DNA of 64,000 nt, from contig JBAZZA010000006.1 of assembly GCA_041659025.1 (NCBI GenBank), positions 9,514-73,513 of the forward strand. The letters run 5' to 3'. Shown here one piece after another: positions 1 to 56,361 of the stretch (positions are counted from its first letter, which is position 1; each line of letters starts with the position of its first letter). The stretch is from Bacteroidales bacterium. GTDB lineage: Bacteria > Bacteroidota > Bacteroidia > Bacteroidales > UBA932. The position numbers were made by a program, and so were the translations under genes. The notes under the pieces are model-generated. The model had not been told where the DNA came from. It did not search any database and worked only from the letters and a program-made list of their open reading frames with translations.

Positions 1-736
1 TTGCGTTTAGAAGCATTTTCAAATCATTTTTATGAAAAGAACAAAAAGGTATATTAAGTTGAAACGTTGATTTAATACCAACTTTACGGGATAAGTTAAA
101 AATTTCAACTATATGTTTGGCTGACTCTTCAAATGATAAAACAAAGCTATCATCAACTTTTTCATATTCAACAGCTGGTGAAGCAACGTTAAAAGCAATA
201 TGTTTTAATTTAAGAGTGTCATTAATAAATGCAATTATTTCTGAACTATATTGAAAAGACAATTTAGATAAAACGATATTGGCGTTAGGTTTATATCCCA
301 TTTGTGTGAGATTTTCAAAACCTAGTAATACATCTTTAAATACATCTTTTTTCTTTGTATTTTGGTAATAATTTTCCTCAGAAAAACCATGAAAGGAGAA
401 TGTAATATTTTTCAAACCTAAATCTATACAATTTTTTGCGAAATTCATATCCGAAAAAACTCTACCGTTTGTAACAAGAGAAATTTTCATATCATGTGAA
501 CCTAGCAATTTTATTAATCGAAATAAGTTTGAATATAAAGTAGGTTCACCTCCAATTAAAATAATATTTTTAATTCCAATTTCCTTGAAAATTTTTATTT
601 TATTATTTATAAAAGATATATTAATTTCGGTTCCTTTTGCATTATTAACACTGTCTTTAACATAGCACCAAATGCAATTGTTATTGCAGCTATCTATTAA
701 ATCAATCCATAATGTCTTTGGTAAAGCATATTTCAT
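1..736 (-). CDS. radical SAM enzyme (possibly SPASM/maturase type); the C-terminal end runs off the window
   Basis: Absent from the ORF track because it has no stop in the window. My translation of the minus strand from the ATG at 736 reads MKYALPKTLWIDLIDSCNNNCIWCYVKDSVNNAKGTEINISFINNKIKIFKEIGIKNIILIGGEPTLY...VTNGRV... It has the CxxxCxxC cluster motif and a GGEP SAM motif, and the frame stays open to base 1. Confidence 0.75.
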   Translation of the reverse strand, partial: MKYALPKTLWIDLIDSCNNNCIWCYVKDSVNNAKGTEINISFINNKIKIFKEIGIKNIILIGGEPTLYSNLFRLIKLLGSHDMKISLVTNGRVFSDMNFAKNCIDLGLKNITFSFHGFSEENYYQNTKKKDVFKDVLLGFENLTQMGYKPNANIVLSKLSFQYSSEIIAFINDTLKLKHIAFNVASPAVEYEKVDDSFVLSFEESAKHIVEIFNLSRKVGIKSTFQLNIPFCSFHKNDLKMLLNA

Positions 737-779
737 TTGTCATCATTATTTTAATTATAATCGCTATTTTTTTTATAAC

Positions 780-915
780 TGCTAACGTTTCGGGGCTTTG
801 CGTTCGGGCGGGAAATCGAAGCACAAATGTTCAGTTTTGCAAAAAAAATCAATTGAAAAACAGCCGTTGGATTTTGCACTTCAGCCCGCCTGACGCAAAA
901 CCCTTGTTATGTGCA
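780..915 (-). repeat. attC-like imperfect hairpin site E1 (candidate cassette recombination site)
   Basis: The minus strand reads TGCACATAAC-AA-GGGTTTTGCG-TCA-GGCGGG...variable about 70 nt...CCCGCC-CGAA-CGCAAAGCCCC-GAAAC-GTTAGCA. It has paired arms with bulges, AAC/GTT terminal cores and a length of about 136 bp. It starts 4 nt after the HEPN stop codon. Confidence 0.5.
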
Positions 916-919
916 GATT

Positions 920-1510
920 TTATTCCATTAATCTAAACCAATCTTTTACCGTCAATTCAAGTCTTACAATTTCGTCTTCTGCAAGAGGACAGCAATGTGC
1001 TATTGGTCCTCTTAATTGATTTAAATTTGTCATTATCTTTGAAAACGCTCTTTGTCCTCGTTTAAATAGATTTTCAAATGCTTCCCAATTTTTTGTAACT
1101 ATTTGACCTAACTCACCAAATGTTGTATAATCTATTTTTTCTAGTGAACGGATTGTAAATCCTGAATCTTCTTCACGTTGAATGTTTTTATCTACATTTT
1201 TCTTTACTTCTTCATCTATTTTGTCAACCCACCAGTTCTCGCCATATTTTTCTTTCATTAAAAGCATAACCTGCCTTCTAATTGATTTTTCAAGACAGTA
1301 AAAAACCTCGTAATGTTTAGACATTACTTTCGCCTCATTTCTAAATTCAGCTTCAAATTGCAAGTAAAAGTCCTTTTCCTTCGTTTGTGCTTTTTCTTGA
1401 CGTCCTAAATCAGAACCTATTTCAATCTCTACATTGTCAAGTCGATTTTCTGTTAGGCTATTTGCCAAGCAAAAAAGCTTTACTTTAGAAATTATATCGT
1501 CATTAGTCAT
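920..1510 (-). CDS. Swt1-like HEPN domain protein (predicted RNase, toxin/effector candidate)
   Basis: A 196 aa ORF. The C-terminal region reads ...YGENWWVDKI...NWEAFENLF...LNQLRGPIAHCCPLAEDEI, with an R-x4-H HEPN motif encoded at 995-1012. Its start overlaps the upstream gene's stop (ATGACTAA). Confidence 0.7.
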   Translation of the reverse strand: MTNDDIISKVKLFCLANSLTENRLDNVEIEIGSDLGRQEKAQTKEKDFYLQFEAEFRNEAKVMSKHYEVFYCLEKSIRRQVMLLMKEKYGENWWVDKIDEEVKKNVDKNIQREEDSGFTIRSLEKIDYTTFGELGQIVTKNWEAFENLFKRGQRAFSKIMTNLNQLRGPIAHCCPLAEDEIVRLELTVKDWFRLME

Positions 1511-2132
1511 TTAATAAATTTTCCTTTAAAGATTTGAAAATTGCGTTAAAGACTGCAGGGTCGTCTGTTTTAGGTAAAACTAAATTAATGGTATAACTTA
1601 AACCCAAGTTGATTTTCTTGATTGTTTTCCCTGTTTCTATAGGAGTTTCCTTTTCCTCTTTGATTTCTGGTTGCTTAACAATGTCAATTTTGTCTTCCTT
1701 TGAATTTTCGAAATCAGCTAATTCTTTTGCAGCCCAAAAAGTACCTGCGATTGCTTTAACCGTACTATTATCGTGTGCTGAGCCTGTTATTTCGGACACC
1801 AATTTTGTTAATTCAGTCCTTGATAGGTCTTGGGCATATTCATTTCTCTCATATATTTCTGAGTAACCAATTTTTATGGCTTTTGCCATTGTTTTGCTTC
1901 GATAGCTTGGATTTCTATAGTCCTTGTAAATCTGTGTAGGAGTTCCGTCACTATTTAAAAAATTACATTTTTTCGCCCAAGAAATGAACATTCTTTGGTT
2001 GCCACCTGGAAATCCAAGTTTAGTTCCTAAGAAGTCATTATTGAAATTTTCAGGAACAGAAGCATCACAGATTTTGGTTAAAATCTTTGTGAGTGTCCCA
2101 GGTGTCATTAAGTAAGGTAAATTTGATGCCAT
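1503..2132 (-). CDS. DUF5343-like protein (family recalled from memory); N-terminal globular domain, E/K-rich linker and a short conserved C-terminal segment
   Basis: A 209 aa ORF reading MASNLPYLMTPGTLTKILTKI...GFPGGNQR...SDGTPTQIYKDY..., then a linker ENSKEDKIDIVKQPEIKEEKETPIE, then the tail INLVLPKTDDPAVFNAIFKSLKENLL. It overlaps the HEPN gene by 8 nt, which suggests translational coupling. Confidence 0.65.
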   Translation of the reverse strand: MASNLPYLMTPGTLTKILTKICDASVPENFNNDFLGTKLGFPGGNQRMFISWAKKCNFLNSDGTPTQIYKDYRNPSYRSKTMAKAIKIGYSEIYERNEYAQDLSRTELTKLVSEITGSAHDNSTVKAIAGTFWAAKELADFENSKEDKIDIVKQPEIKEEKETPIETGKTIKKINLGLSYTINLVLPKTDDPAVFNAIFKSLKENLLND

Positions 2133-2148
2133 AATGTTTGTTTAAATT

Positions 2149-2208
2149 TGCACATAACGGTTCGGCGATATAGCCCGTTTTAATGGGCGGTGACGCCTGT
2201 TATGGGTG
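2149..2208 (-). repeat. attC-like imperfect hairpin site E2 (candidate cassette recombination site)
   Basis: The minus strand reads CACCCATAAC-A-GGCG-TCACC-GCCC-ATTAAAAC-GGGC-TATAT-CGCC-GAACC-GTTATGTGCA, about 60 bp. It shares its architecture and the GAAMC-GTTA end with E1. It ends 16 nt upstream of the DUF5343-like ATG. Confidence 0.5.
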
Positions 2209-2403
2209 CGGTTGCTTTCATAATGTTATTCTCGTCTATTATCTCTTTTCCGGTTGGCTACAACATGATATTTCCTCTCCAATATTGACCTTCTCCCTCT
2301 TGCTCCCCTTCTATTTCGCTGTTATTCTATCCCTTATTTTCCATTAGCACCTTCTGCAAACAATTTAGTAATTGTATCTTAAACATCTAATTCCTTCGCA
2401 ACT

Positions 2404-2479
2404 CACCCATAACTTGTTTATATATTTAACTTTATTACATATACTCACCAATTTCAATTGATAATATTCAACGTTATTG
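2404..2479 (-). repeat. possible degenerate third attC-like site E3
   Basis: GTTATGGGTG (minus strand, 2413 to 2404) is the exact reverse complement of the E2 5' core CACCCATAAC. A GTTA/TAAC pair at 2473-2476 and 2410-2413 could close a weak AT-rich hairpin. The fold is poor. Confidence 0.25.
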
Positions 2480-2810
2480 AATAATACATGTGAATAAAAT
2501 CCCTTATTTCCCCAGCGCATTTCTTATGAAAAGAAGTACTAGCATGGAATACAATGTGGTAAAGTGAAAAAATACACCCGAACTGCAACGTAGTAAATTT
2601 AAATAATAGAATATCTATTTCCAAATAAATTTTCTATATCCAGATAATCTTTAGCTAATTACAGAATTTCTCTGGCCTATTTAAGTCAAATTTGCTCATT
2701 TCACCCATTCTCCAGACAGACAAGAAACCTTTACACATATTATCAAACCATGGCAAAAATTGTGAAATACAACAGAAATATTCAAGAACTGGGAGATATT
2801 TGTTATAAAG

Positions 2811-2950
2811 GTTTGTGCACCCACTCATTGAGCGTAGCATAAAAAATCAAGAGCGGAAATTGGCAGCTATTCTGCTGAAGGATTATCTCAATTACACCCT
2901 TTAATTTTTACCAAGTAAGCGCATCAGGAGTTATTGAGCAGCACCAATAC
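2811..2950. repeat. degenerate copy (B1) of the long-palindrome family
   Basis: The left arm GTTTGTGCACCCACTCATTGAGCGTAGCATAAAAAATCAAGAGCGGAAA closely matches the 3274-3321 arm. The right arm is decayed. Confidence 0.4.
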
Positions 2951-3080
2951 ACAGAAGTGAATCCGTGAAAACGTATCAGAACTCGGCGCAAATAGTGTGA
3001 CAAAATACAGTATATGGTGCATGATTAGTATATGCTTGCAGAATTGTATTCTCTTTTCTACTGTCATTTTGCATTAAAAG

Positions 3081-3118
3081 ATTGATTGTGTAATAGTCTG
3101 AACGGGCATTGCATAAAC
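3081..3118. repeat. partial copy of the outer arm of the long-palindrome family
   Basis: ATTGATTGTGTAATAGTCTGAACGGGCATTGCATAAAC resembles TTGATTGTGTAATAGCCAGAGGGACATTGCAATAAG at 3236-3271. Confidence 0.4.
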
Positions 3119-3235
3119 TATTTGTCGCATATTACACTATAGGAAATTATGCGACTTAATAGTAATAAGGTGTGGAGTTTGAAGATGCTTAAGGCTTATA
3201 AAATATATTCTCATATTCATTTTGCTTCTTAATTT

Positions 3236-3427
3236 TTGATTGTGTAATAGCCAGAGGGACATTGCAATAAGCGTTTGGGCACCCACTCATTGAGCGCAGC
3301 GTAAAAAATCAAGAGTGGAAACCTGCAGCCATCTGTACTGGCAAACTTGGTTTCCACCTTTGATTTTTAGCGTAGCGAAAGCACAGTGGGTAAACGCGAT
3401 GCACGGTCCCGAAGGCAATTACACAGC
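3236..3427. repeat. long imperfect palindrome B2 (about 190 bp; inner arms 3280-3323 and 3349-3392, loop 3324-3348)
   Basis: The inner arms CACCCACTCATTGAGCGCAGCGTAAAAAATCAAGAGTGGAAACC and GGTTTCCACCTTTGATTTTTAGCGTAGCGAAAGCACAGTGGGTA are largely complementary. The outer arms (ATTGTGTAATAGCC... and ...GGCAATTACACAGCC) extend the pairing. Confidence 0.6.
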
Positions 3428-3540
3428 CATATAATAAATAGAAGCAAAATGAAAAAGAAAACAAAGAGAATAAATCCGAAACACGCATCCGAAAACCCAC
3501 ACCTTATCCAAAAATTGTCGCATAATTAGCTCTGTATAAT

Positions 3541-3590
3541 TCGCGAAGTGGGTAAACGCGATGCACAGTCCCGAAAGCAATAACACAACC
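3541..3590. repeat. partial copy (right outer arm) of the long-palindrome family
   Basis: TCGCGAAGTGGGTAAACGCGATGCACAGTCCCGAAAGCAATAACACAACC resembles GCACAGTGGGTAAACGCGATGCACGGTCCCGAAGGCAATTACACAGCC at 3381-3427. Confidence 0.5.
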
Positions 3591-3698
3591 AATAAAAAAA
3601 AGAGATTCAAAATAAAGAAGTAGATAATACGGCTGTAAGCATCTTTAATAATGCACCATACCAAGAGTGACGCACAATTTGCACCCAGTCTGCTACTG

Positions 3699-4529
3699 CT
3701 ACGATTCACACAGGAACTTGCTGCTCACAACTCCCTGAAAGCTCTTCGACACCGGAATATCAGGCGAATCCGCCACATCAATCTCCAGCATGAGCCCCTC
3801 CTTGGTACGCCTAATAACCTTAACCCTGTTAAAATTCACAAGAAACGACCTATGACAACGAGCAACAGGCGTCCTCCTCAACAAAGATTCAAGGTTCTTA
3901 AGACTGTTCCGGAGCAGATACGTCTTAGACTTACCATTAGTAACATAATGAATAACAACATAATTATCAGCCGATTCAATATAAAGCAAATCCTCCAGCA
4001 AAATAGACAACATAAGAGCACCCTTCTCATCCTTAAAAGTAATACTCTTAAGCGGATTCAACTCAGGTTCGTCACCAGACTCAATCTTCTGCAACCTTCT
4101 AGTACTCTCCTGCCACCCAAAATAGAACCACAAAGCAAGATAGGGGAGAAGAAGGACAAGAGCAGTATTCTTAGAAGACTCCTTGAAAACCTCCATAGTA
4201 TCCCGGCTGGGGTTAAGCACAAGAGAGTAGATAGTATAGAAGAGCGACATGAACAAAATCTCCGCAAGCACCCAGATAACATAAGTACGATAAGAGATAT
4301 CATGCCTGCGACTATAGAAGTACATAATGATACGGCTGATGATAACAACCAGCACCCCGGTGAGAATAATAAGGCTGGAGTAGACAAAGAACATGAAGTC
4401 AGAAACCTTGTACCAGCTCGACGAGCTGAAGGGTTTGTAGATATTGATGAAGACCAGCGCAAATACAGCAGTCAGGGCAACCAGCTTTATAATATTCCGT
4501 TTTTCGTTTATGTATTTTGGTATGTTCAT
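3699..4529 (-). CDS. membrane-anchored LytTR-domain DNA-binding protein
   Basis: Four or more N-terminal hydrophobic helices. The C-terminal LytTR-like region reads LLYIESADNYVVIHYVTNGKSKTYLLRNSLKNLESLL...CHRSFLVNFNRV. I placed the start at the ATG at 4529 (MNIPKY...) rather than at the ORF-track maximum. Confidence 0.75.
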   Translation of the reverse strand: MNIPKYINEKRNIIKLVALTAVFALVFINIYKPFSSSSWYKVSDFMFFVYSSLIILTGVLVVIISRIIMYFYSRRHDISYRTYVIWVLAEILFMSLFYTIYSLVLNPSRDTMEVFKESSKNTALVLLLPYLALWFYFGWQESTRRLQKIESGDEPELNPLKSITFKDEKGALMLSILLEDLLYIESADNYVVIHYVTNGKSKTYLLRNSLKNLESLLRRTPVARCHRSFLVNFNRVKVIRRTKEGLMLEIDVADSPDIPVSKSFQGVVSSKFLCES

Positions 4530-4679
4530 ATCTCCTTCGCAAATGTAACAAATTAATTTGGCCACGCATATTAAATTTTCACCCCATATTCCGCAATTTC
4601 GCCCCAAAGCCATACCCTTTAAACCATTTATTTGCCAAGCGCAGAGCGGAATATTTCTTTTGTGAAAAATTACAGAGAT

Positions 4680-5765
4680 ATGAAGCTGCACAAATTTATT
4701 TTTAAAGAAGTTTTGGGAAAAGGAGCGATAGTGGACGACATGAAAAAATGCAAGACTCCGGTTTTCCTAAAGAAGACCGACGATGAATTTCAGGAAAACC
4801 AGGCATTCGAATATCTTATAGTAGAGCCCGAAAATATGCTCAGAGAGCCCAACGGAAAGGCATCGTCGGTTATACTCATGTTTCACGGACTAAACGAGAG
4901 GACATGGGACAAATACTACTCATGGGCAGAGTACATAGCCAACCACACAAGAAAACCGGTTCTGCTTTTTCCAACAGCGTTCCACATAAACAGGGCCCCG
5001 GCAGAATGGAGCAACCCAAGAGCAATGCAACCGTTCGTGGCCGACCAGCAGAACACAGAGCCAAAGCCGTCGCACCTCACATTCCTGAACTACGCACTCA
5101 GCAACAGGATAAAGGCCGACCCATACAGATTCTACCTTGCCGGCAGGGAGACAATCAACAACGTCTGCCAGCTTATTGGAAAAATCAAAAAAGGGACACA
5201 CAAGCTTATAGACAGCAAAGCAACAATAGACATATTTGCATATTCGATTGGGGCCCTAATGTCGCAGGTGATACTCTTTGCAAACCCCAACAACTACTTT
5301 ACAAAGAGCAAGTTGTTCATGTTTTGCGGAGGCTCGCTTTTCGACCAGATGGACGGAGAGTCAAAGATGATAATGGACAGGGAGTCGTTCTATTCGCTGC
5401 TCGATTATTACAAAAACAAGTTTCTTTTCTTCAAAAGCGAGAGCAGGTTAAAGGGCGACGTTCTTGAGATGGCATTTGTGAGCCATATAGACTACGCAAT
5501 AAACAGAGAGGAACGAGAGAGCTTCTATGAGGAGATAAGCCATAGGATACAGGCAATATCGCTAAAGAAAGACAAGGTGATACCAACAACAGGAATCAAG
5601 TCCGCTCTTGGCAAAATACATATGAACTGCCTTGAGGAACTTGATTTTCCATTTGATTATTCTCATGAGAACCCGTTTCCTCCCGAAGGACCAAAAGTCG
5701 ACCCTGCCGACAGGAAGTTCTGGTTTGAGAAGGTATTCTCTAAAGCGTCAGCCTTTCTGAGCTAA
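4680..5765 (+). CDS. alpha/beta-hydrolase-fold protein of unknown function
   Basis: It has an HG oxyanion motif (MFHGLNE), a nucleophile-elbow-like AYSIGA and a C-terminal SHENPF. The start was chosen at MKLHKF (4680). The specific family is not recognised with certainty. Confidence 0.6.
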
Positions 5766-6578
5766 CTCTTTTATAAGCGATTTAGGATCAATGTTGTTAC
5801 GCTCGATGTCCTTGAAGTAGTTTACTGTGCCAACCTTGAGCTCAACTGTAGAGGCATCGTCGCAAACAATAATTCCCTTTCTGTGAAGCTGAAGCACGCT
5901 TACAGTATACATGTGGTTCACGCTACCCTCGATAGCTTCGTAAAGGGCCCTCGACTTATGGTGACCGTTAACCAGAACCATTACCTCTTCGGCATCCATA
6001 ATTGTTCCCACACCAACAGTAAGAGCAGTCTTAGGAACCTGATGGATGTCGTTGTTGAAAAACCTGGAGTTGGCTATTATGGTGTCGGTAGTCAGGCTCT
6101 TGATCCTTGTCCTTGAAGTTAAGGAAGAACCCGGTTCGTTAAAAGCAATGTGTCCGTCGGGGCCAATTCCACCCATAAACAGGTGAACACCACCGTAGGA
6201 GGCCATCTTCTTCTCGTAATTCTCACATTCAAGCAACAAATCCTTTGCGTTGCCGTCAAGTATGTTGGCGTTTTCTCTTCTTATGTCTATATGCTGGAAA
6301 AAGTTGTTCCACATAAAGGTAAAGTACGATTGCGGGTGCTCTTTGGGGATGCCGATATACTCATCCATGTTGAATGTGACAACATTCTTGAATGATACCA
6401 GTCCCTCTCTGTAATATTTAACAAGCTCCTTGTATGTTCCGTTTGGAGTAGATCCTGTAGGAAGTCCAAGCACGAAGGGCTTGTATTCCGTTGGAGCAAA
6501 TTCCCTGATTCTTTTTACAATGTAGGCCGCGGCCCATTGTGAAACCTCTTCGTAAGAGTTTTGTATGATTACTCGCAT
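5748..6578 (-). CDS. nagB: glucosamine-6-phosphate deaminase
   Basis: [17 protein letters not shown]...LGLPTGSTP...FNMDEY...[16 protein letters not shown] are typical NagB motifs. Confidence 0.9.
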
Positions 6579-6608
6579 AGTCAGGTATTTTAGGTATTTT
6601 TCTATAGT

Positions 6609-8276
6609 TTAGTTTCTGTTTCCAAGCAGCTCCCTGGCATTTGCCAGTGCTGCCGATGTAAGTTCCGACCCGCTCAACATCCTTGCAACCTCGGTAACTC
6701 TCTCTCCATCAGATATCTCCCGTATTTTCGTGGTAGTTGTGCCACTGTGGTCAATCTCTTTATATACAAGCAGATGGGTGTTTCCTTTGCTTGCTATCTG
6801 CGGCAGATGAGTTATTGCAAATATCTGCATCTTTTTTGAAAGTGCATCAATAAGATTTCCCATTTTATCTGCAATGCTTCCTGAAACTCCGCTGTCAATC
6901 TCGTCAAAGATCATGGAAGGCATCCCTTTTCCGCTGGCCATTAGCGCTTTAAGGCAAAGCATTATTCTGGAAATCTCTCCGCCAGATGCTACCTTAGAAA
7001 GCTCTCTAGGTGCAATATTTTTGTTGGCAGAGAAGAAAAATGTAACGGCATCCTTTCCGAAAACATTGTATGCCTCTGTCTCTTTAATCTCAACTTCGAA
7101 CACTGCATGGGGCATCTCAAGGTCCCTTATAGCAGAGTTCATCTCAGAGGAGAAGGTATTTGATACCTTTGAGCGTCTCTCATGCAGACTTGCCGACAAC
7201 TCGTCCCTGAGTTTACGGCATTCAGCTATCTCAATATCTGCCTTTTCCAGCTCTTGCTGGTAGCTGTTGCTTAGTAGCAGTTTGCTGTCTAGTTGTTCCT
7301 TTATTGCCAGCAGCTCCTCCACACTCTCTGCATGATGCTTTTTGAGAAGTGTGTAAATGGCAGATATCCGCTCTTCGAGCATCTTTGCCCTTTCCGGCTG
7401 AACCATAACGGAGTCGGCCTTTATTGCCAGCTCCTGCTCAATATCCTTGAGCTCTATGCGGCACGCCTCAAGACGTTCCGTAATTGAATCTATGGCCTTG
7501 AAGTTATGTGATATTTTTGTTGATATGTTAACAGCCTCCTTTAGATTCTGCACAACCGGTATACCGGCAGGGGAGAGGAGCTCAGTTATGTTGAAAAGTG
7601 ATGCTTTTATCTCTTCTGCGTTGCTGAGCAGGCGATACTCCTCTTCTAGCTCCTCCAGTTCGCCTGTTGCCAGTTTTGCCTCCTCCAGCTGATTGAACTG
7701 GAACCTATTGTATTCGGCCTCGCTCTCCTCTCTGGCAAGCTTGGCCTTGAGTTCATTTCTGTGTGAAATCAGCTGGTTTAGCCTTGTGTAGTGGCTCTGG
7801 TACTCTGCAAGCAGAGAGGTGTTGCCGGCAAATGAGTCCAGTACCGATAGCTGAAAGCTTGAGTCTGCAAGCAGCAGATGCTGATGCTGTGCGTGAATGT
7901 CTATGATTTTCTCCGAAATGTCCTTTAGGAACTGCAGGCTGACAGGTTCGTCATTAACGAACGACCTCGATTTACCGTTGGGCGAGACAACTCTTCTAAG
8001 TGTGAGTGATGGCGAGTATTCCAGAGAGTTCTCCTCAAAAATTCTTTGGAAATCGGAATCCCCCTCAATTTCGAACAACGCCTCAACAATACAGTTCTTG
8101 TTCTTGTCCTTAAGTATTGCCATGTCTGCCTTTCCCCCCAGAAGGAGAGAAATTGCTCCCATCAGAATTGACTTTCCTGCGCCGGTCTCGCCAGTGATAA
8201 TAACCAGACCATCCGGAAATCCAATCTCCAGACTCTCAATAAGAGCATAGTTGGATACACTTAGCGATTTGAGCAT
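6609..8276 (-). CDS. recN: DNA repair protein RecN
   Basis: The N-terminus reads MLKSLSVSNYALIESLEIGF...ITGETGAGKSIL (Walker A). There is a long coiled-coil middle and a C-terminal FDEIDSGVSG motif. Confidence 0.92.
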   Translation of the reverse strand: MLKSLSVSNYALIESLEIGFPDGLVIITGETGAGKSILMGAISLLLGGKADMAILKDKNKNCIVEALFEIEGDSDFQRIFEENSLEYSPSLTLRRVVSPNGKSRSFVNDEPVSLQFLKDISEKIIDIHAQHQHLLLADSSFQLSVLDSFAGNTSLLAEYQSHYTRLNQLISHRNELKAKLAREESEAEYNRFQFNQLEEAKLATGELEELEEEYRLLSNAEEIKASLFNITELLSPAGIPVVQNLKEAVNISTKISHNFKAIDSITERLEACRIELKDIEQELAIKADSVMVQPERAKMLEERISAIYTLLKKHHAESVEELLAIKEQLDSKLLLSNSYQQELEKADIEIAECRKLRDELSASLHERRSKVSNTFSSEMNSAIRDLEMPHAVFEVEIKETEAYNVFGKDAVTFFFSANKNIAPRELSKVASGGEISRIMLCLKALMASGKGMPSMIFDEIDSGVSGSIADKMGNLIDALSKKMQIFAITHLPQIASKGNTHLLVYKEIDHSGTTTTKIREISDGERVTEVARMLSGSELTSAALANARELLGNRN

Positions 8277-9487
8277 AAAAGAAGCTTTTCAACCAGATCT
8301 GTAATATCTTTAGCAACCTCAGTCTTATCTTTAAGGGGATATTCATTAACCTCCCCGCTTTTGTTTATGATTGACACCTTGTTGGTGTCTGAGCCGAATC
8401 CTGCACCCTTGTCGTTTAGTGAGTTGAGCACAATGGCATCAAGATTTTTCCTCTCCAGTTTTTTACGGGCATTGGAGAGTTCGTTACTTGTCTCCAGGGC
8501 AAATCCAATGAGGATTGTCCCCTCTTTTTTCAATTCTCCAAGGGAGGCAGCAATATCCTTAGTGGGAGTGAGTTCCAGATTGTAGCTCTCCTTTTCGTTT
8601 TCCTTCTGCCGCTTTATCTTTTCGTCTGCTGCTTTTACCGGTGTGAAGTCTGCAACTGCAGCACAAAGTATTGCAGCATCTATACCTTTGTTAAAGCAAG
8701 AAAGTGTCTCTTTGTACATCTGCTCTGCAGAAACAACATCTATGCGGGTTATGCTTTTTCCTTCAATTTTGAGCGAGGTTGGGCCTGAAACAAGAAACAC
8801 ATCTGCTCCTCTGGCTGCGCACTCTTCTGCAATTGCATATCCCATCTTTCCGCTTGAGTGGTTGGATATATACCTAACCGGATCTATCGCCTCTTGGGTG
8901 GGACCTGCCGTTATGAGTATTTTTTTGCCGGAAAGGCTCTTATTGGCTAAAAAAAAATCGTCGATGATTTTTGCTATAACCTCAGGTTCCTCCATTCTCC
9001 CCTTGCCATCGAGACCGCTAGCAAGTTCACCGGATGCAGGTTCGATTACCTTTACCCCGCGCTTTGCAAGTATCTCTATGCTGTTCTGTGTTGCGGTATG
9101 AAGAAACATATCTACGTCCATTGCCGGTGCCACCATAACAGGGCATCGGGCCGACAGATATGTGGTTAGAAGTAGGTTGTCTGCTATGCCTGTTGCCATT
9201 TTTGACAAGGTGTTCGCCGATGCCGGGGCAATTATATAGAGGTCGGCCCACATTCCCAGTGAGATGTGACTGTTCCAGTCGCCGTTCTCAGGATTGTAGA
9301 ACTCAACCAGAATTGGATTTTTAGAAAGGGTTGCCATAGTGAGGGGCGAGATGAACTGCTTTGCCATCTCTGTCATGATTACCTTTACCTCTGCTCCTTG
9401 CTTGACCAACGATCTTACAAGAACAGCAGATTTGTAAGCAGCTATGCTGCCGGTCACCCCCAGCAATATGTGCTTGCCCTTTAGCAT
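8261..9487 (-). CDS. coaBC: bifunctional phosphopantothenoylcysteine decarboxylase / phosphopantothenate-cysteine ligase
   Basis: An N-terminal flavoprotein domain (GKHILLGVTGSIAAYK) and a C-terminal DFP domain (ITAGPTQEAIDPVRYISNHSSGKMG). Confidence 0.92.
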   Translation of the reverse strand: MLKGKHILLGVTGSIAAYKSAVLVRSLVKQGAEVKVIMTEMAKQFISPLTMATLSKNPILVEFYNPENGDWNSHISLGMWADLYIIAPASANTLSKMATGIADNLLLTTYLSARCPVMVAPAMDVDMFLHTATQNSIEILAKRGVKVIEPASGELASGLDGKGRMEEPEVIAKIIDDFFLANKSLSGKKILITAGPTQEAIDPVRYISNHSSGKMGYAIAEECAARGADVFLVSGPTSLKIEGKSITRIDVVSAEQMYKETLSCFNKGIDAAILCAAVADFTPVKAADEKIKRQKENEKESYNLELTPTKDIAASLGELKKEGTILIGFALETSNELSNARKKLERKNLDAIVLNSLNDKGAGFGSDTNKVSIINKSGEVNEYPLKDKTEVAKDITDLVEKLLLCSNR

Positions 9488-9802
9488 CTATCCCTCTATC
9501 TTTCTGTAGTAGATTTGTCCCTCTTCAAACTCGCTGATTGCCATAAGGGATGGTTTTGGAAGCTTCTCGTAATAACGTGAAATTTCTATCTGCTCCCTGT
9601 TCTCGAATGTCTCCTCAAGTGTGTCGGCATAGTTCGAAAACTCATCAAGTTTCTGACTGAGCTCCTGCTTAACCTCTGCAGATATCTGGTTTGCTCTCTT
9701 GGCAATGATTATTACTGACTCGTAAATGTTGCCTGTGGGAGCAGCTAACTTAGAAAGGTCCCTTGTAATGGTGTTGTTAGGAACCTGTTTTTTAATTTCC
9801 AT
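9488..9802 (-). CDS. rpoZ: RNA polymerase omega subunit-like protein
   Basis: 104 aa. The NIYESVIIIAKRANQI segment resembles the omega core helix. It sits in the conserved position between bamD and coaBC. Confidence 0.65.
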   Translation of the reverse strand: MEIKKQVPNNTITRDLSKLAAPTGNIYESVIIIAKRANQISAEVKQELSQKLDEFSNYADTLEETFENREQIEISRYYEKLPKPSLMAISEFEEGQIYYRKIEG

Positions 9803-54575: not shown

Positions 54576-54660
54576 TTTTTTTTGATTATCGTCTGAAACA
54601 AAGGAAGCAATTTCTGTCTCATCCGGATTATTTACTACTGGAGCGTAACCCCCAGTATTG

Positions 54661-54731
54661 CAGGGGCAGAGAGATTCGAACTCCCATCAACGGTTTTGGA
54701 GACCGCTATTCTACCCTTGAACTATGCCCCT
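54661..54731 (-). tRNA. tRNA-Trp (anticodon CCA)
   Basis: The reverse complement is AGGGGCATAGTTCAAGGGTAGAATAGCGGTCTCCAAAACCGTTGATGGGAGTTCGAATCTCTCTGCCCCTG. The cloverleaf folds, the anticodon loop is CUCCAAA, and no CCA is encoded. Confidence 0.9.
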
Positions 54732-54779
54732 AATATATCAAGTCAGCCTCCCCGATTAAAGTTGGCTGACTTGTTGTAA

Positions 54780-55967
54780 TTAGTCTAGGATTTCAGTTAC
54801 CTGACCTGCTCCAACTGTACGGCCACCTTCGCGGATTGCAAAACGCAAACCCTGGTTGATAGCTACTGGATAGATTAGTTCAACTGTAATAGTAACGTTA
54901 TCACCTGGCATTACCATCTCTGTTCCTTCAGGAAGCATGATTTCTCCAGTAATATCCAATGTACGGATAAAGAACTGAGGACGATACCTGTTGTGGAATG
55001 GAGTGTGACGGCCACCTTCGTCTTTCTTAAGTACGTAAATTTCAGCCTTGAACTTCTTGTGTGGAGTTATGGTACCTGGTTTGGCAATAACCTGACCTCG
55101 TTTGATGTCTTTTTTGTCAATACCGCGAAGAAGAAGTCCTACATTGTCACCAGCCTCACCTCTGTCAAGAATCTTACGGAACATCTCAACACCTGTGACA
55201 ACCGATTTTCTTGGCTCTTCGCCAAGACCAATCACATTAATTTCTTCACCTGTTTTGATAACACCAGTTTCAATACGACCAGTTGCAACTGTACCACGAC
55301 CGGTAATCGAGAATACGTCCTCAACAGGCATAAGGAATGGTTTTTCGTTTTCACGAGGAGGAATTGGAATGTATGAGTCTACTGCATCCATAAGTTCCAT
55401 TACTTTTGCTTCCCACTGTGGGTCACCATTAAGTGCACCTAGTGCAGAACCACGGATTACAGGAGCATTATCTCCATCATATTTATAGAATGTAAGAAGT
55501 TCGCGTACTTCCATCTCAACAAGGTCAATCATCTCAGGATCGTCAACAATGTCAACTTTGTTTAGGAATACAACTATCTTAGGAACGTTTACCTGACGGG
55601 CAAGAAGAATATGCTCACGTGTCTGGGGCATTGGACCATCAGTTGCAGCTACTACTATAATTGCTCCGTCCATCTGGGCAGCACCTGTTACCATGTTCTT
55701 AACATAGTCGGCGTGTCCCGGACAGTCTACGTGTGCATAGTGACGTGATGCAGTAGAATACTCAATGTGTGCAGTGTTGATAGTTATACCACGCTCTTTT
55801 TCTTCAGGAGCGTTGTCGATAGAGTCAAATGTACGGATCTCAGAAAGACCTTTACGTGCTAAAACCATTGTGATAGCAGCAGTCAAGGTAGTCTTGCCAT
55901 GGTCAACGTGACCAATGGTTCCGATGTTTACGTGCGGCTTGTCCCTTTTGTAAGTTTCTTTTGCCAT
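54780..55967 (-). CDS. tuf: elongation factor Tu
   Basis: [15 protein letters not shown] and NKVD motifs. 395 aa. Confidence 0.98.
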
Positions 55968-56009
55968 AATAATAGAATTTAATTTATAATGAATTATTTA
56001 CACACTTGT

Positions 56010-56083
56010 AGAGCCGGTGATGGGAATTGAACCCATGGCCTCTTCCTTACCAAGGAAGCGCTCTACCTCTGAGCTACACTGGC
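56010..56083 (-). tRNA. tRNA-Thr (anticodon GGT)
   Basis: The reverse complement is GCCAGTGTAGCTCAGAGGTAGAGCGCTTCCTTGGTAAGGAAGAGGCCATGGGTTCAATTCCCATCACCGGCTCT. The anticodon stem-loop is CTTCC-TTGGTAA-GGAAG. There is one A:C mismatch at acceptor pair 4:69. Confidence 0.85.
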
Positions 56084-56089
56084 TTACTA

Positions 56090-56164
56090 AGAGCGGAAGA
56101 CGAGGTTCGAACTCGCGACCCTCAGCTTGGAAGGCTGATGCTCTACCAACTGAGCTACTTCCGC
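56090..56164 (-). tRNA. tRNA-Gly (anticodon TCC)
   Basis: The reverse complement is GCGGAAGTAGCTCAGTTGGTAGAGCATCAGCCTTCCAAGCTGAGGGTCGCGAGTTCGAACCTCGTCTTCCGCTCT. Confidence 0.9.
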
Positions 56165-56177
56165 AATAAAAAAATAG

Positions 56178-56260
56178 TGGGGAGAGCAGGATTCGAACCT
56201 ACGAAGGCGTAAGCCAGCAGATTTACAGTCTGCCCCAGTTGGCCACTTTGGTATCTCCCC
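56178..56260 (-). tRNA. tRNA-Tyr (anticodon GTA), long variable arm
   Basis: The reverse complement is GGGGAGATACCAAAGTGGCCAACTGGGGCAGACTGTAAATCTGCTGGCTTACGCCTTCGTAGGTTCGAATCCTGCTCTCCCCA. Confidence 0.9.
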
Positions 56261-56285
56261 ATTATTACATTTCTTCAAAAAACTA

Positions 56286-56361
56286 AGAGCCGATGGAGGG
56301 ATTCGAACCCCCGACCAGCTGATTACAAATCAGCTGCTCTGGCCAACTGAGCTACATCGGC
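56286..56361 (-). tRNA. tRNA-Thr (anticodon TGT)
   Basis: The reverse complement is GCCGATGTAGCTCAGTTGGCCAGAGCAGCTGATTTGTAATCAGCTGGTCGGGGGTTCGAATCCCTCCATCGGCTCT. Confidence 0.9.

Follow-up and report, generated by a model that had tools for sequence, protein, structure and literature searches.

Integron cassettes are established stores of compact defense systems, including HEPN and two-gene systems, and three HEPN systems carried on such cassettes, AbiU2, Esos, and Taranis, have been shown by experiment to be defensive (Kieffer et al., Darracq et al., 2026 preprint). We analyzed a two-gene unit, encoding a DUF5343 protein (gene A) and a Swt1-family HEPN protein (gene B), in a 64-kb stretch of DNA (the window) from a Bacteroidales metagenome-assembled genome (contig JBAZZA010000006.1, GCA_041659025.1). 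The pair is an integron-type gene cassette and, as we argue below, may encode an RNase-based growth-arrest system. The features of the pair are as follows.

1503..2132, minus strand: gene A, DUF5343 protein (PADLOC PDC-M34A), 209 amino acids (aa); Pfam PF17278 and PDLC04589
920..1510, minus strand: gene B, Swt1-family HEPN protein (PADLOC PDC-M34B), predicted RNase effector, 196 aa; Pfam PF18731 and PDLC04592
1503..1510, minus strand: overlap of A and B, ATGACTAA, with the stop of A inside the start of B; 8 nt, by direct reading
995..1012, minus strand: codons of the HEPN catalytic motif R167-x4-H172, with R167 at 1010-1012 and H172 at 995-997

Relation to described systems

The locus is a member of the PADLOC system PDC-M34. 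Both models match along their full length, in the order A>>B, adjacent and on one strand (A versus PDLC04589, E = 1.6e-50, residues 1-206 on profile positions 1-207 of 208; B versus PDLC04592, E = 1.2e-35). PDC systems are phage defense candidates drawn from cassettes embedded in BREX, DISARM, and type I restriction-modification (RM) systems, and the supplementary table enters CAS_00130 (FAM_01148>>FAM_01657, with 97 beside the entry) as "Assign as candidate PDC-M34" (Payne et al., bioRxiv 10.1101/2024.01.29.577857). The searchable PDC-M34 text and supplement of that work contain no mechanism, domain description, or integron association. A preliminary description of this DNA had suggested that the pair might be an uncharacterized module; being catalogued as PDC-M34, it is not new as a candidate.

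Toxin-antitoxin (TA) systems of the HEPN-MNT kind (type VII; for instance, Shewanella SO_3166/SO_3165) resemble the pair in having two small adjacent genes, an Rx4-6H HEPN toxin, and a partner presumed to hold the HEPN protein inactive. As in TA systems generally, the two small genes here are adjacent, and the partner lies upstream of the putative toxin and is coupled to it. However, the partner here is a DUF5343 protein and not a minimal nucleotidyltransferase (MNT), so that AMPylation-type neutralization is not expected, and the HEPN protein belongs to the Swt1/Abi2 clade, whereas theirs belongs to the nucleotidyltransferase-associated clade. The Abi2/Swt1 clade was defined by Anantharaman et al. 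(2013). AbiD/AbiF (Abi_2), AbiJ/Taranis, AbiU2, and HEC-08 share this clade and the expected course of RNA cleavage leading to growth arrest. These single-gene abortive-infection (Abi) proteins join sensing and effector in one polypeptide, whereas here the presumed regulator is a separate, coupled protein with a conserved tail.

Like integron cassettes and bacteriophage-resistance integron cassettes (BRiCs; Kieffer et al., Darracq et al.), the pair is compact and apparently promoterless and has an attC-like hairpin with RYYYAAC...GTTRRRY cores; the arrays have a single orientation, and one relative lies 4.4 kb from a true IntI. In contrast to BRiCs, the site here is of a Bacteroidota type of about 130 nt, the 64-kb window holds no integrase, the integrases beside several related arrays are Xer-like and fall below the IntI cutoff, and recombination is predicted from sequence. 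The "Integron cassette HEPN" family (PDB 3jrt; Anantharaman et al. 2013) likewise places HEPN proteins on integron cassettes but is a different HEPN family, encoded by a single gene, in Gammaproteobacteria. Integrons have been reported in Bacteroidota, where IntegronFinder 2.0 found only one complete integron.

A translationally coupled gene pair

The junction reads TTA AAT GAC TAA in the frame of A, and in a second frame ATG ACT AAT starts B. A matches Pfam DUF5343 (PF17278) over residues 6-145 (E = 1.6e-48; 165 bits, cutoff 27), and B matches Pfam HEPN_Swt1 (PF18731) over residues 69-194 on profile positions 2-113 of 115 (E = 6e-14; 52.7 bits, cutoff 27.5). The two proteins have the NCBI accessions MFA5850277.1 and MFA5850278.1, and the NCBI names are "Swt1 family HEPN domain-containing protein" for B and "DUF5343 domain-containing protein" for A. 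No second family beside DUF5343 was found for A in Pfam, NCBIfam was empty for A and added nothing for B, and a search of PHROGs gave no meaningful match. The preliminary description had proposed two minus-strand open reading frames (ORFs) overlapping by 8 nt, DUF5343 and Swt1-like HEPN identities, and a partner other than an MNT. The coordinates and junction letters agree with the first of these, the Pfam scores above curated cutoffs with the second, and the match of A to DUF5343 alone in Pfam, with nothing in NCBIfam, with the third.

To sample loci, one genome per species was scanned with an alignment of A, and 80 loci were kept from 184 relatives (designated L001 and so on). In every one of these 80 loci, the gene directly 3' of A, and co-oriented with it, is a homologue of B; all of the loci encode DUF5343 proteins bearing the C-terminal tail described below. 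The spacing of the junction across 79 loci was most often -8 nt (30 loci), -4 nt (19), or +1 nt (13), and nearly all others were within a few nucleotides. Overlap or abutment was seen in about 75 of the 79, and the apparent gaps of 34 to 45 nt in the remaining 4 are probably start-codon miscalls. The two proteins also diverge together (Mantel r = 0.84; 0 of 999 permutations reached this value). Co-conservation beyond this genome, on which the two-component idea of the preliminary description depended, is thus seen at every locus sampled, with the start/stop coupling kept.

We also sought a conserved third gene. The 646 flanking ORFs fell into 608 clusters, none of them conserved, and the idea of a three-gene module was rejected because the flanking ORFs are nearly all unique. 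An extra 187-aa ORF is shared by L008 (5374-5934) and L014 (11233-11793) only, where it follows the HEPN gene and precedes the closing ...AAC arm; it has no Pfam or PADLOC match. In L034, A appears as a pseudogene beside an intact B, which could be taken as an argument against an antitoxin role for A; we rejected this argument because the stop comes as early as codon 7, with another start available downstream of it.

The HEPN protein

The R-x4-H motif that the preliminary description placed at 995-1012 is present, in the context LNQLRGPIAHCC, with the core LRGPIAH running from R167 to H172. In an alignment of 79 homologues that covers more than 10 phyla and reaches down to about 40% identity, R167 and H172 are at least 98% conserved, as are N164, E74, R78, R121, and S122. 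Membership in the HEPN superfamily is marked by a conserved polar or acidic residue in the N-terminal helix together with Rx4-6H, and B has both. An AlphaFold2 model of B is all-alpha (predicted local distance difference test [pLDDT], 85.5). The sequence profile of B returned only spurious coiled-coil matches in the PDB and no solved relative, and 3jrt was absent even at E <= 10. The HEPN assignment rests on the sequence profile, and B is a predicted metal-independent endoribonuclease.

Anatomy of the DUF5343 protein

Identity profiles and the AlphaFold2 model divide A into three parts.

aa 1-144, nt 1701-2132, minus strand: N-terminal domain
aa 145-175, nt 1608-1700, minus strand: variable acidic linker
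aa 176-209, nt 1506-1607, minus strand: near-invariant beta-strand and helix tail

In the model, the N-terminal domain (residues 1-140) is all-helical, with pLDDT >90 and one small hairpin past the third helix; residues 145-179 are disordered (pLDDT <50), and a C-terminal strand plus helix follows (192-206). Mean pairwise identity is 0.76 for the tail, 0.50 for the N-terminal domain, and 0.10 for the linker, compared with 0.54 for B. The tail is thus the best-conserved part of A and is conserved above the whole of B, as would be expected of an interface. Invariant residues of the N-terminal domain are P27, K54, P65, Y69, R73, T116, G117, and F141. The N-terminal domain is basic (mean pI, 8.9), the linker is acidic, and B is acidic (pI, 5.2). 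The layout that the preliminary description had outlined, with a globular N-terminal domain, an E/K-rich linker, and a conserved tail, emerges from alignments of 32 and 79 sequences as well as from the model, and the sequence motifs it quoted from A are all present.

Outside this arrangement, a representative search found a 457-aa protein (P0344) that joins the DUF5343 N-terminal domain directly to a Ser/Thr protein kinase domain. In still other DUF5343 proteins, the N terminus is extended or a different C terminus replaces the putative HEPN-docking tail. The DUF5343 N-terminal domain thus appears to behave as a modular input that can be coupled to different outputs. The modeled fold of DUF5343 has no characterized counterpart in the PDB or BFVD. 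The sequence profile of A found nothing in the PDB, and the tail alone gave a nonsignificant match to a designed repeat protein. The C-terminal regions of DEAH helicases recurred among the Foldseek matches of A and were rejected as structural kin, the matches being too weak (E > 1).

An integron-type cassette

The pair is bracketed by sequences of the kind expected at the ends of an integron cassette.

2144..2158, minus strand: 5' cassette boundary, GTTATGTGCAAATTT, with core-site-like GTTATGT (R' type, GTTRRRY-like), 12-26 nt upstream of the start codon of A
906..920, minus strand: 3' arm, AAATCTGCACATAAC, which begins at the last base of the stop codon of B and ends in the inverse core ACATAAC (R'' type, RYYYAAC-like)
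780..912, minus strand: 133-nt attC-like site (R'' ACATAAC, imperfect long hairpin, R' GTTAGCA), found with covariance model R1

The segments at 906-920 and 2144-2158 form a 15-nt inverted repeat that brackets the pair exactly, and the next cassette joins at the GTT at 784-786. Other genomes have the same geometry, with a GTT arm 26 to 60 nt 5' of A and its reverse complement, ending in AAC, right after the stop of B; the arms differ in sequence between genomes while their complementarity is preserved (covariation). This extended complementarity of the arms follows from integron mechanics, because crossover at G|TT means that a cassette begins with the TT... half of its own R'.

Three kinds of evidence for attC sites were used: the arms, a duplex-energy test with shuffles, and a covariance model. 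Arms of 12 nt with at least 10 matches occurred in 17 of 79 loci (0.3 expected from shuffles), and with at least 9 matches in 24 of 79 (1.55 expected). In the duplex-energy test, 13 of 81 loci had an attC-like hairpin below the 1% threshold set by the shuffles (0.8 expected), and 20 of 81 had one below the 5% threshold (4 expected). The covariance model, R1, was built from 20 Bacteroidota-type sites of about 130 nt, none from this genome; its seed alignment supports 21 pairs by RNAalifold, 18 of them with compensatory changes. R1 matched the window once in 64 kb, at full length and directly after B (780-912, minus strand; 101.6 bits, E = 2.1e-19). A minimum-energy attC scan was set aside, as it overshoots and is noisy in GC-rich genomes. 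Textbook attC sites of 56 to 102 nt lie 3' of the pair in Alcanivorax, Geopseudomonas, Anaerolineales, Lacipirellulaceae, Opitutaceae, and Spirochaetia loci, and about 70% of loci have no recognizable attC or arms.

Among the related loci, R1 found 47 sites at E <= 1e-3, and all 47 have the same orientation as the pair. There are arrays of 20 sites in L082, 8 in L008, 7 in L016, and 4 in L084. Of the relatives with a long context, the closest is in L082, where the pair belongs to a run of about 20 consecutive cassettes (L082 1-20630). In the Spirochaetia locus L047, the integrase 4.4 kb upstream of the pair is a bona fide integron integrase (TIGR02249, 399.6 bits; cutoff, 265), and a crude hairpin scan of this locus counted 11 attC-like sites (0.7 expected). 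The arms, the attC-like site, and the arrays together refine the "mobile-looking cargo" of the preliminary description to an integron-type gene cassette, as which the A-B pair is predicted to move.

The 5' untranslated part of the cassette is 26 nt, and no sigma-70-like site was found upstream on the coding strand. The Bacteroidetes TAnnTTTG motif was likewise absent from the 368 nt upstream, in consensus scans that cannot exclude a promoter.

Distribution and genomic neighborhood

At E <= 1e-5, B had 4,823 relatives and A had 1,463; a profile built from distant A sequences found at least 6,800, and at 50% clustering A had 1,337 representative clusters. The 80 loci come from Bacteroidota, Pseudomonadota (Pseudomonas, Serratia, Citrobacter, and Alcanivorax), Patescibacteria, Verrucomicrobiota, Acidobacteriota, Nitrospirota, Planctomycetota, Spirochaetota, Cyanobacteria, Actinomycetota, and Clostridia. 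The A-B pair occurs patchily, scattered horizontally across more than 10 phyla. Close relatives of the pair (81 to 87% identical) lie in entirely different contexts, two of them adjoining integrases, and in the window the left 3.5 kb has a GC content of 27 to 36%, compared with 43% elsewhere. A blastn search with the Citrobacter copy of the pair found no match in 5,426 Escherichia coli genomes.

The neighbors in other genomes include type IIG RM, DRT2, TIR effectors, pAgo, BrxH, mad3/mad8, and integrases. In L084, an integrative element lies beside the pair (540-9555) with a Bacteroides-type integrase (Arm-DNA-bind_5), a VapE-like primase, a WYL regulator, and a reverse transcriptase plus HisKin-conflict gene pair that resembles DRT-type defense cargo. 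In two Mucilaginibacter loci (L025 8463-9914 and L027 8300-9766), an RtcB RNA ligase gene is directly upstream of the pair on the same strand, and there is a third RtcB among the scanned neighbors. RtcB seals 2',3'-cyclic-phosphate and 5'-OH ends, as left by HEPN RNases. A damage/repair pairing of RtcB with the HEPN protein is conceivable; this could equally be the context of one lineage.

Proposed function and alternative explanations

On balance, we lean toward the module being a two-component RNase growth-arrest system, of an abortive-infection or TA-like kind. B would be the effector, a Swt1/Abi2-clade HEPN endoribonuclease whose activity arrests growth, and A would be its obligatory partner, with the DUF5343 N-terminal domain as a sensor or as a module that binds a ligand or nucleic acid. 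The 34-residue tail of A, a beta-strand and an amphipathic helix, would dock on B and keep it controlled. With A translated first and B coupled to it, B would never be made without A. Infection or stress would then free or activate B, either because A is lost or turned over or because DUF5343 reads a signal, and RNA cleavage by B would abort phage replication. Expression of the cassette, and hence its cost, would be set by array position, since no promoter is evident within the cassette itself. We infer the RNase activity of B, the binding of the A tail to B, the choice between inhibition and activation, and the trigger from an invariant catalytic motif, strict coupled pairing, co-divergence, a conserved tail behind a disordered linker, defense neighbors, and cassette carriage.

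Several observations weigh against this proposal. The model of B had no Foldseek match in the PDB at E < 1, HEPN structures included, and that of A had none in the PDB or BFVD at E < 0.1. The patterns used in the locus scan were peptides from the C-terminal tail of A, so that the pairing in 80 of 80 loci covers tail-bearing DUF5343 proteins only. The neighbors within two genes on either side elsewhere are mixed and include the housekeeping genes for PdxJ, ATP synthase, and asparaginase. A tblastn search with A found no match in 50,697 phage or 72,556 plasmid records, an absence that argues against a classical plasmid-addiction flavor and is neutral on defense. A literature search found no mention of DUF5343 or PDC-M34 and no experiment on the family, and the 145 PDC systems are listed by their authors as untested (Payne et al.).

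Alternatively, the two proteins may form the same complex with A as a positive specificity or targeting subunit and not an inhibitor. The basic DUF5343 domain would bind a particular RNA or a phage component and bring in an acidic HEPN dimer through the tail, such that the A-B complex is active and B alone is inert. We regard this as unlikely, while giving it more weight than the other alternatives. The opposite charges of the A N-terminal domain and the strongly acidic B fit it, and the conservation of the N-terminal domain across phyla suits a universal ligand over a locus-specific operator. The 26 to 60 nt between cassette boundary and start codon also leave too little room for an autoregulated promoter or operator, DUF5343 is fused in cis to a kinase output, and the weak, nonsignificant Foldseek matches of A fall on the winged-helix/ratchet region of DEAH RNA helicases. 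However, those matches do not come near significance (E > 1), sequence searches with A detected no RNA-binding family, and the partner-first, HEPN-second order, the coupling, and the protease-prone disordered linker are hallmarks of antitoxin-toxin pairs.

The TA-like architecture of two coupled genes, and the position of the cassette within arrays in which attC-like sites number up to 20 or more, would suit a pure addiction cassette that stabilizes an integron array against deletion, as in Vibrio chromosomal integrons, with no role against phage. Sedentary chromosomal integrons are well known to carry TA modules. Array-stabilizing TA cassettes need their own constitutive expression, though, and no promoter is evident in the cassette or in the 368 nt upstream. 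The lack of matches on 72,556 plasmids also speaks against addiction, as do the roughly 70% of loci without recognizable attC or arms, where the pair persists outside arrays, and the fact that the pair was first flagged through its embedding in BREX, DISARM, or RM systems. We consider this reading improbable. Least of all do we expect a nonconflict pair for RNA processing or stress response that tunes translation and travels as passive accessory cargo. Anantharaman et al. (2013) did propose dormancy-inducing roles for integron-borne HEPN proteins, and RtcB genes are directly upstream of the pair in the two Mucilaginibacter loci. Running counter to such a role are the patchy distribution, with horizontal scatter across more than 10 phyla, the contexts that are unrelated even between copies 81 to 87% identical, the low-GC island at the left end of the window, and the defense genes and mobile elements in the neighborhood.

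Implications

If the proposed two-component growth-arrest system works as outlined, it would be a compact (1.2-kb) immune system based on an RNase, whose sensor domain is unstudied and whose range runs from Bacteroidota to Pseudomonas, Serratia, Patescibacteria, and Spirochaetes. Carriage as a cassette accounts for the reach of so small a module into many phyla. If DUF5343 is a new sensor/adaptor domain, the pair would be an uncharacterized, phylum-spanning abortive-infection system that travels as an integron cassette, in which DUF5343 controls a HEPN RNase in trans through a 34-residue tail and, elsewhere, a Ser/Thr kinase in cis. The cassette finding takes the recently discovered stockpiling of phage-defense genes by integrons beyond Vibrio and clinical integrons into Bacteroidota, whose complete genomes have yielded hardly any reports of integrons. 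The cassette nature is also an experimental handle, as the unit is movable and its expression tunable by array position. What is new here is the integron-type carriage across many phyla and the structural dissection of the partner protein; the pair itself was already known as a catalogued PADLOC candidate, one of many, and its practical value is modest for now.

The two-part proposal that DUF5343 is a new sensor/adaptor domain and that the Bacteroidota arrays are an under-recognized integron-like branch is a tentative one, and we would not yet expect both parts to hold. Standard integron finders, which need canonical IntI and attC models, would largely miss such arrays if they are what we propose. 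The array class may be under-detected in Bacteroidota, because IntegronFinder 2.0 listed a single complete integron there. These arrays deserve study of their own.

Arrays, integrases, and neighboring cassettes

In the Bacteroidota arrays (L082, L008, L016, L015, and L084), the attC-like sites are about 130 nt long, and most cassettes are single small unannotated ORFs. No tyrosine recombinase was found in the 64-kb window, where the array runs off the left edge. Four related loci encode Xer-like integrases below the IntI cutoff.

L042 8735-9805, minus strand: Xer-like integrase
L086 8745-9872, plus strand: Xer-like integrase
L060 7850-8944, plus strand: Xer-like integrase
L026 12528-13310, minus strand: Xer-like integrase

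These integrases, from three Bacteroidota loci and one Clostridia locus, are mutually related and lie within about 2 kb of the pair. Their best NCBIfam match is NF040815, "tyrosine recombinase/integron integrase." They match TIGR02249 in two stretches that skip model positions of about 180 to 240, and the IntI-specific insertion is apparently absent. They may be the recombinases of these arrays.

The array in this genome could be followed past the left edge of the window on L001, an identical 5.6-kb contig (window position = 3599 - L001 position). It includes the following units beside the pair.

1..736, minus strand: next cassette, 5' part of a radical SAM/SPASM-type gene, cut by the window edge; CNNNCIWC motif in the six-frame translation
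L001 4225-5451, beyond the left edge of the window: Shedu (SduA/DUF4263) gene; PDLC00388, E = 3.7e-23
2199..2413, minus strand: tentative small cassette without an ORF, upstream of the pair, with arms GTTATGGGTGAG / CGCACCCATAAC; 11/12 arm match at L001 1186-1400, weak

On L001, the radical SAM gene encodes 348 aa (Pfam Radical_SAM) and is overlapped at its end by a gene for a 60-aa Cys-rich peptide that ends in ...CRCHCECNCRCDCKCDCVTPGKHW (L001 2863-4075). The boundary arms of this unit, GTTAGCAGTTAT / ACAACCGCTAAC, match at 10 of 12 positions. The two genes look like a maturase and precursor pair for a ribosomally synthesized and posttranslationally modified peptide on an integron cassette; no family was found for them above curated cutoffs. 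After the peptide gene come a shorter attC-like site and then the Shedu cassette, whose core sites are degenerate (GGTAAGCC / GGCTTACA). Because Shedu forms the cassette two along from the pair, the array at this locus is a small defense island, and the preliminary description's view that the pair sits alone does not stand, with the radical SAM/peptide and Shedu cassettes adjoining it in an array. Two further sites of this array are degenerate and were recognized by eye only. An attC-like hairpin of about 55 nt, which follows the tentative cassette at 2199-2413 and ends at the GTT of the pair, was also read by eye and went undetected by R1.

Between the A-B pair and a LytTR-family gene is a 1.5-kb, ORF-poor, low-GC stretch that contains two pairs of direct repeats (2800-2870 and 3262-3332, 71 nt, 83% identity; 3385-3438 and 3547-3600, 54 nt, 85%). 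These may be cassette remnants or attC/attI-like sites. Searches of the ORF-poor stretch from 2133 to 3700 found no integrase remnant or pseudogene (tblastn with all neighbor proteins and two integrases), and an Rfam search of it was empty. Far to the right in the window, five tRNA genes lie on the minus strand at 54660-56361 (Thr-Tyr-Gly-Thr and a separate Trp), an ordinary housekeeping context unrelated to the cassette array.

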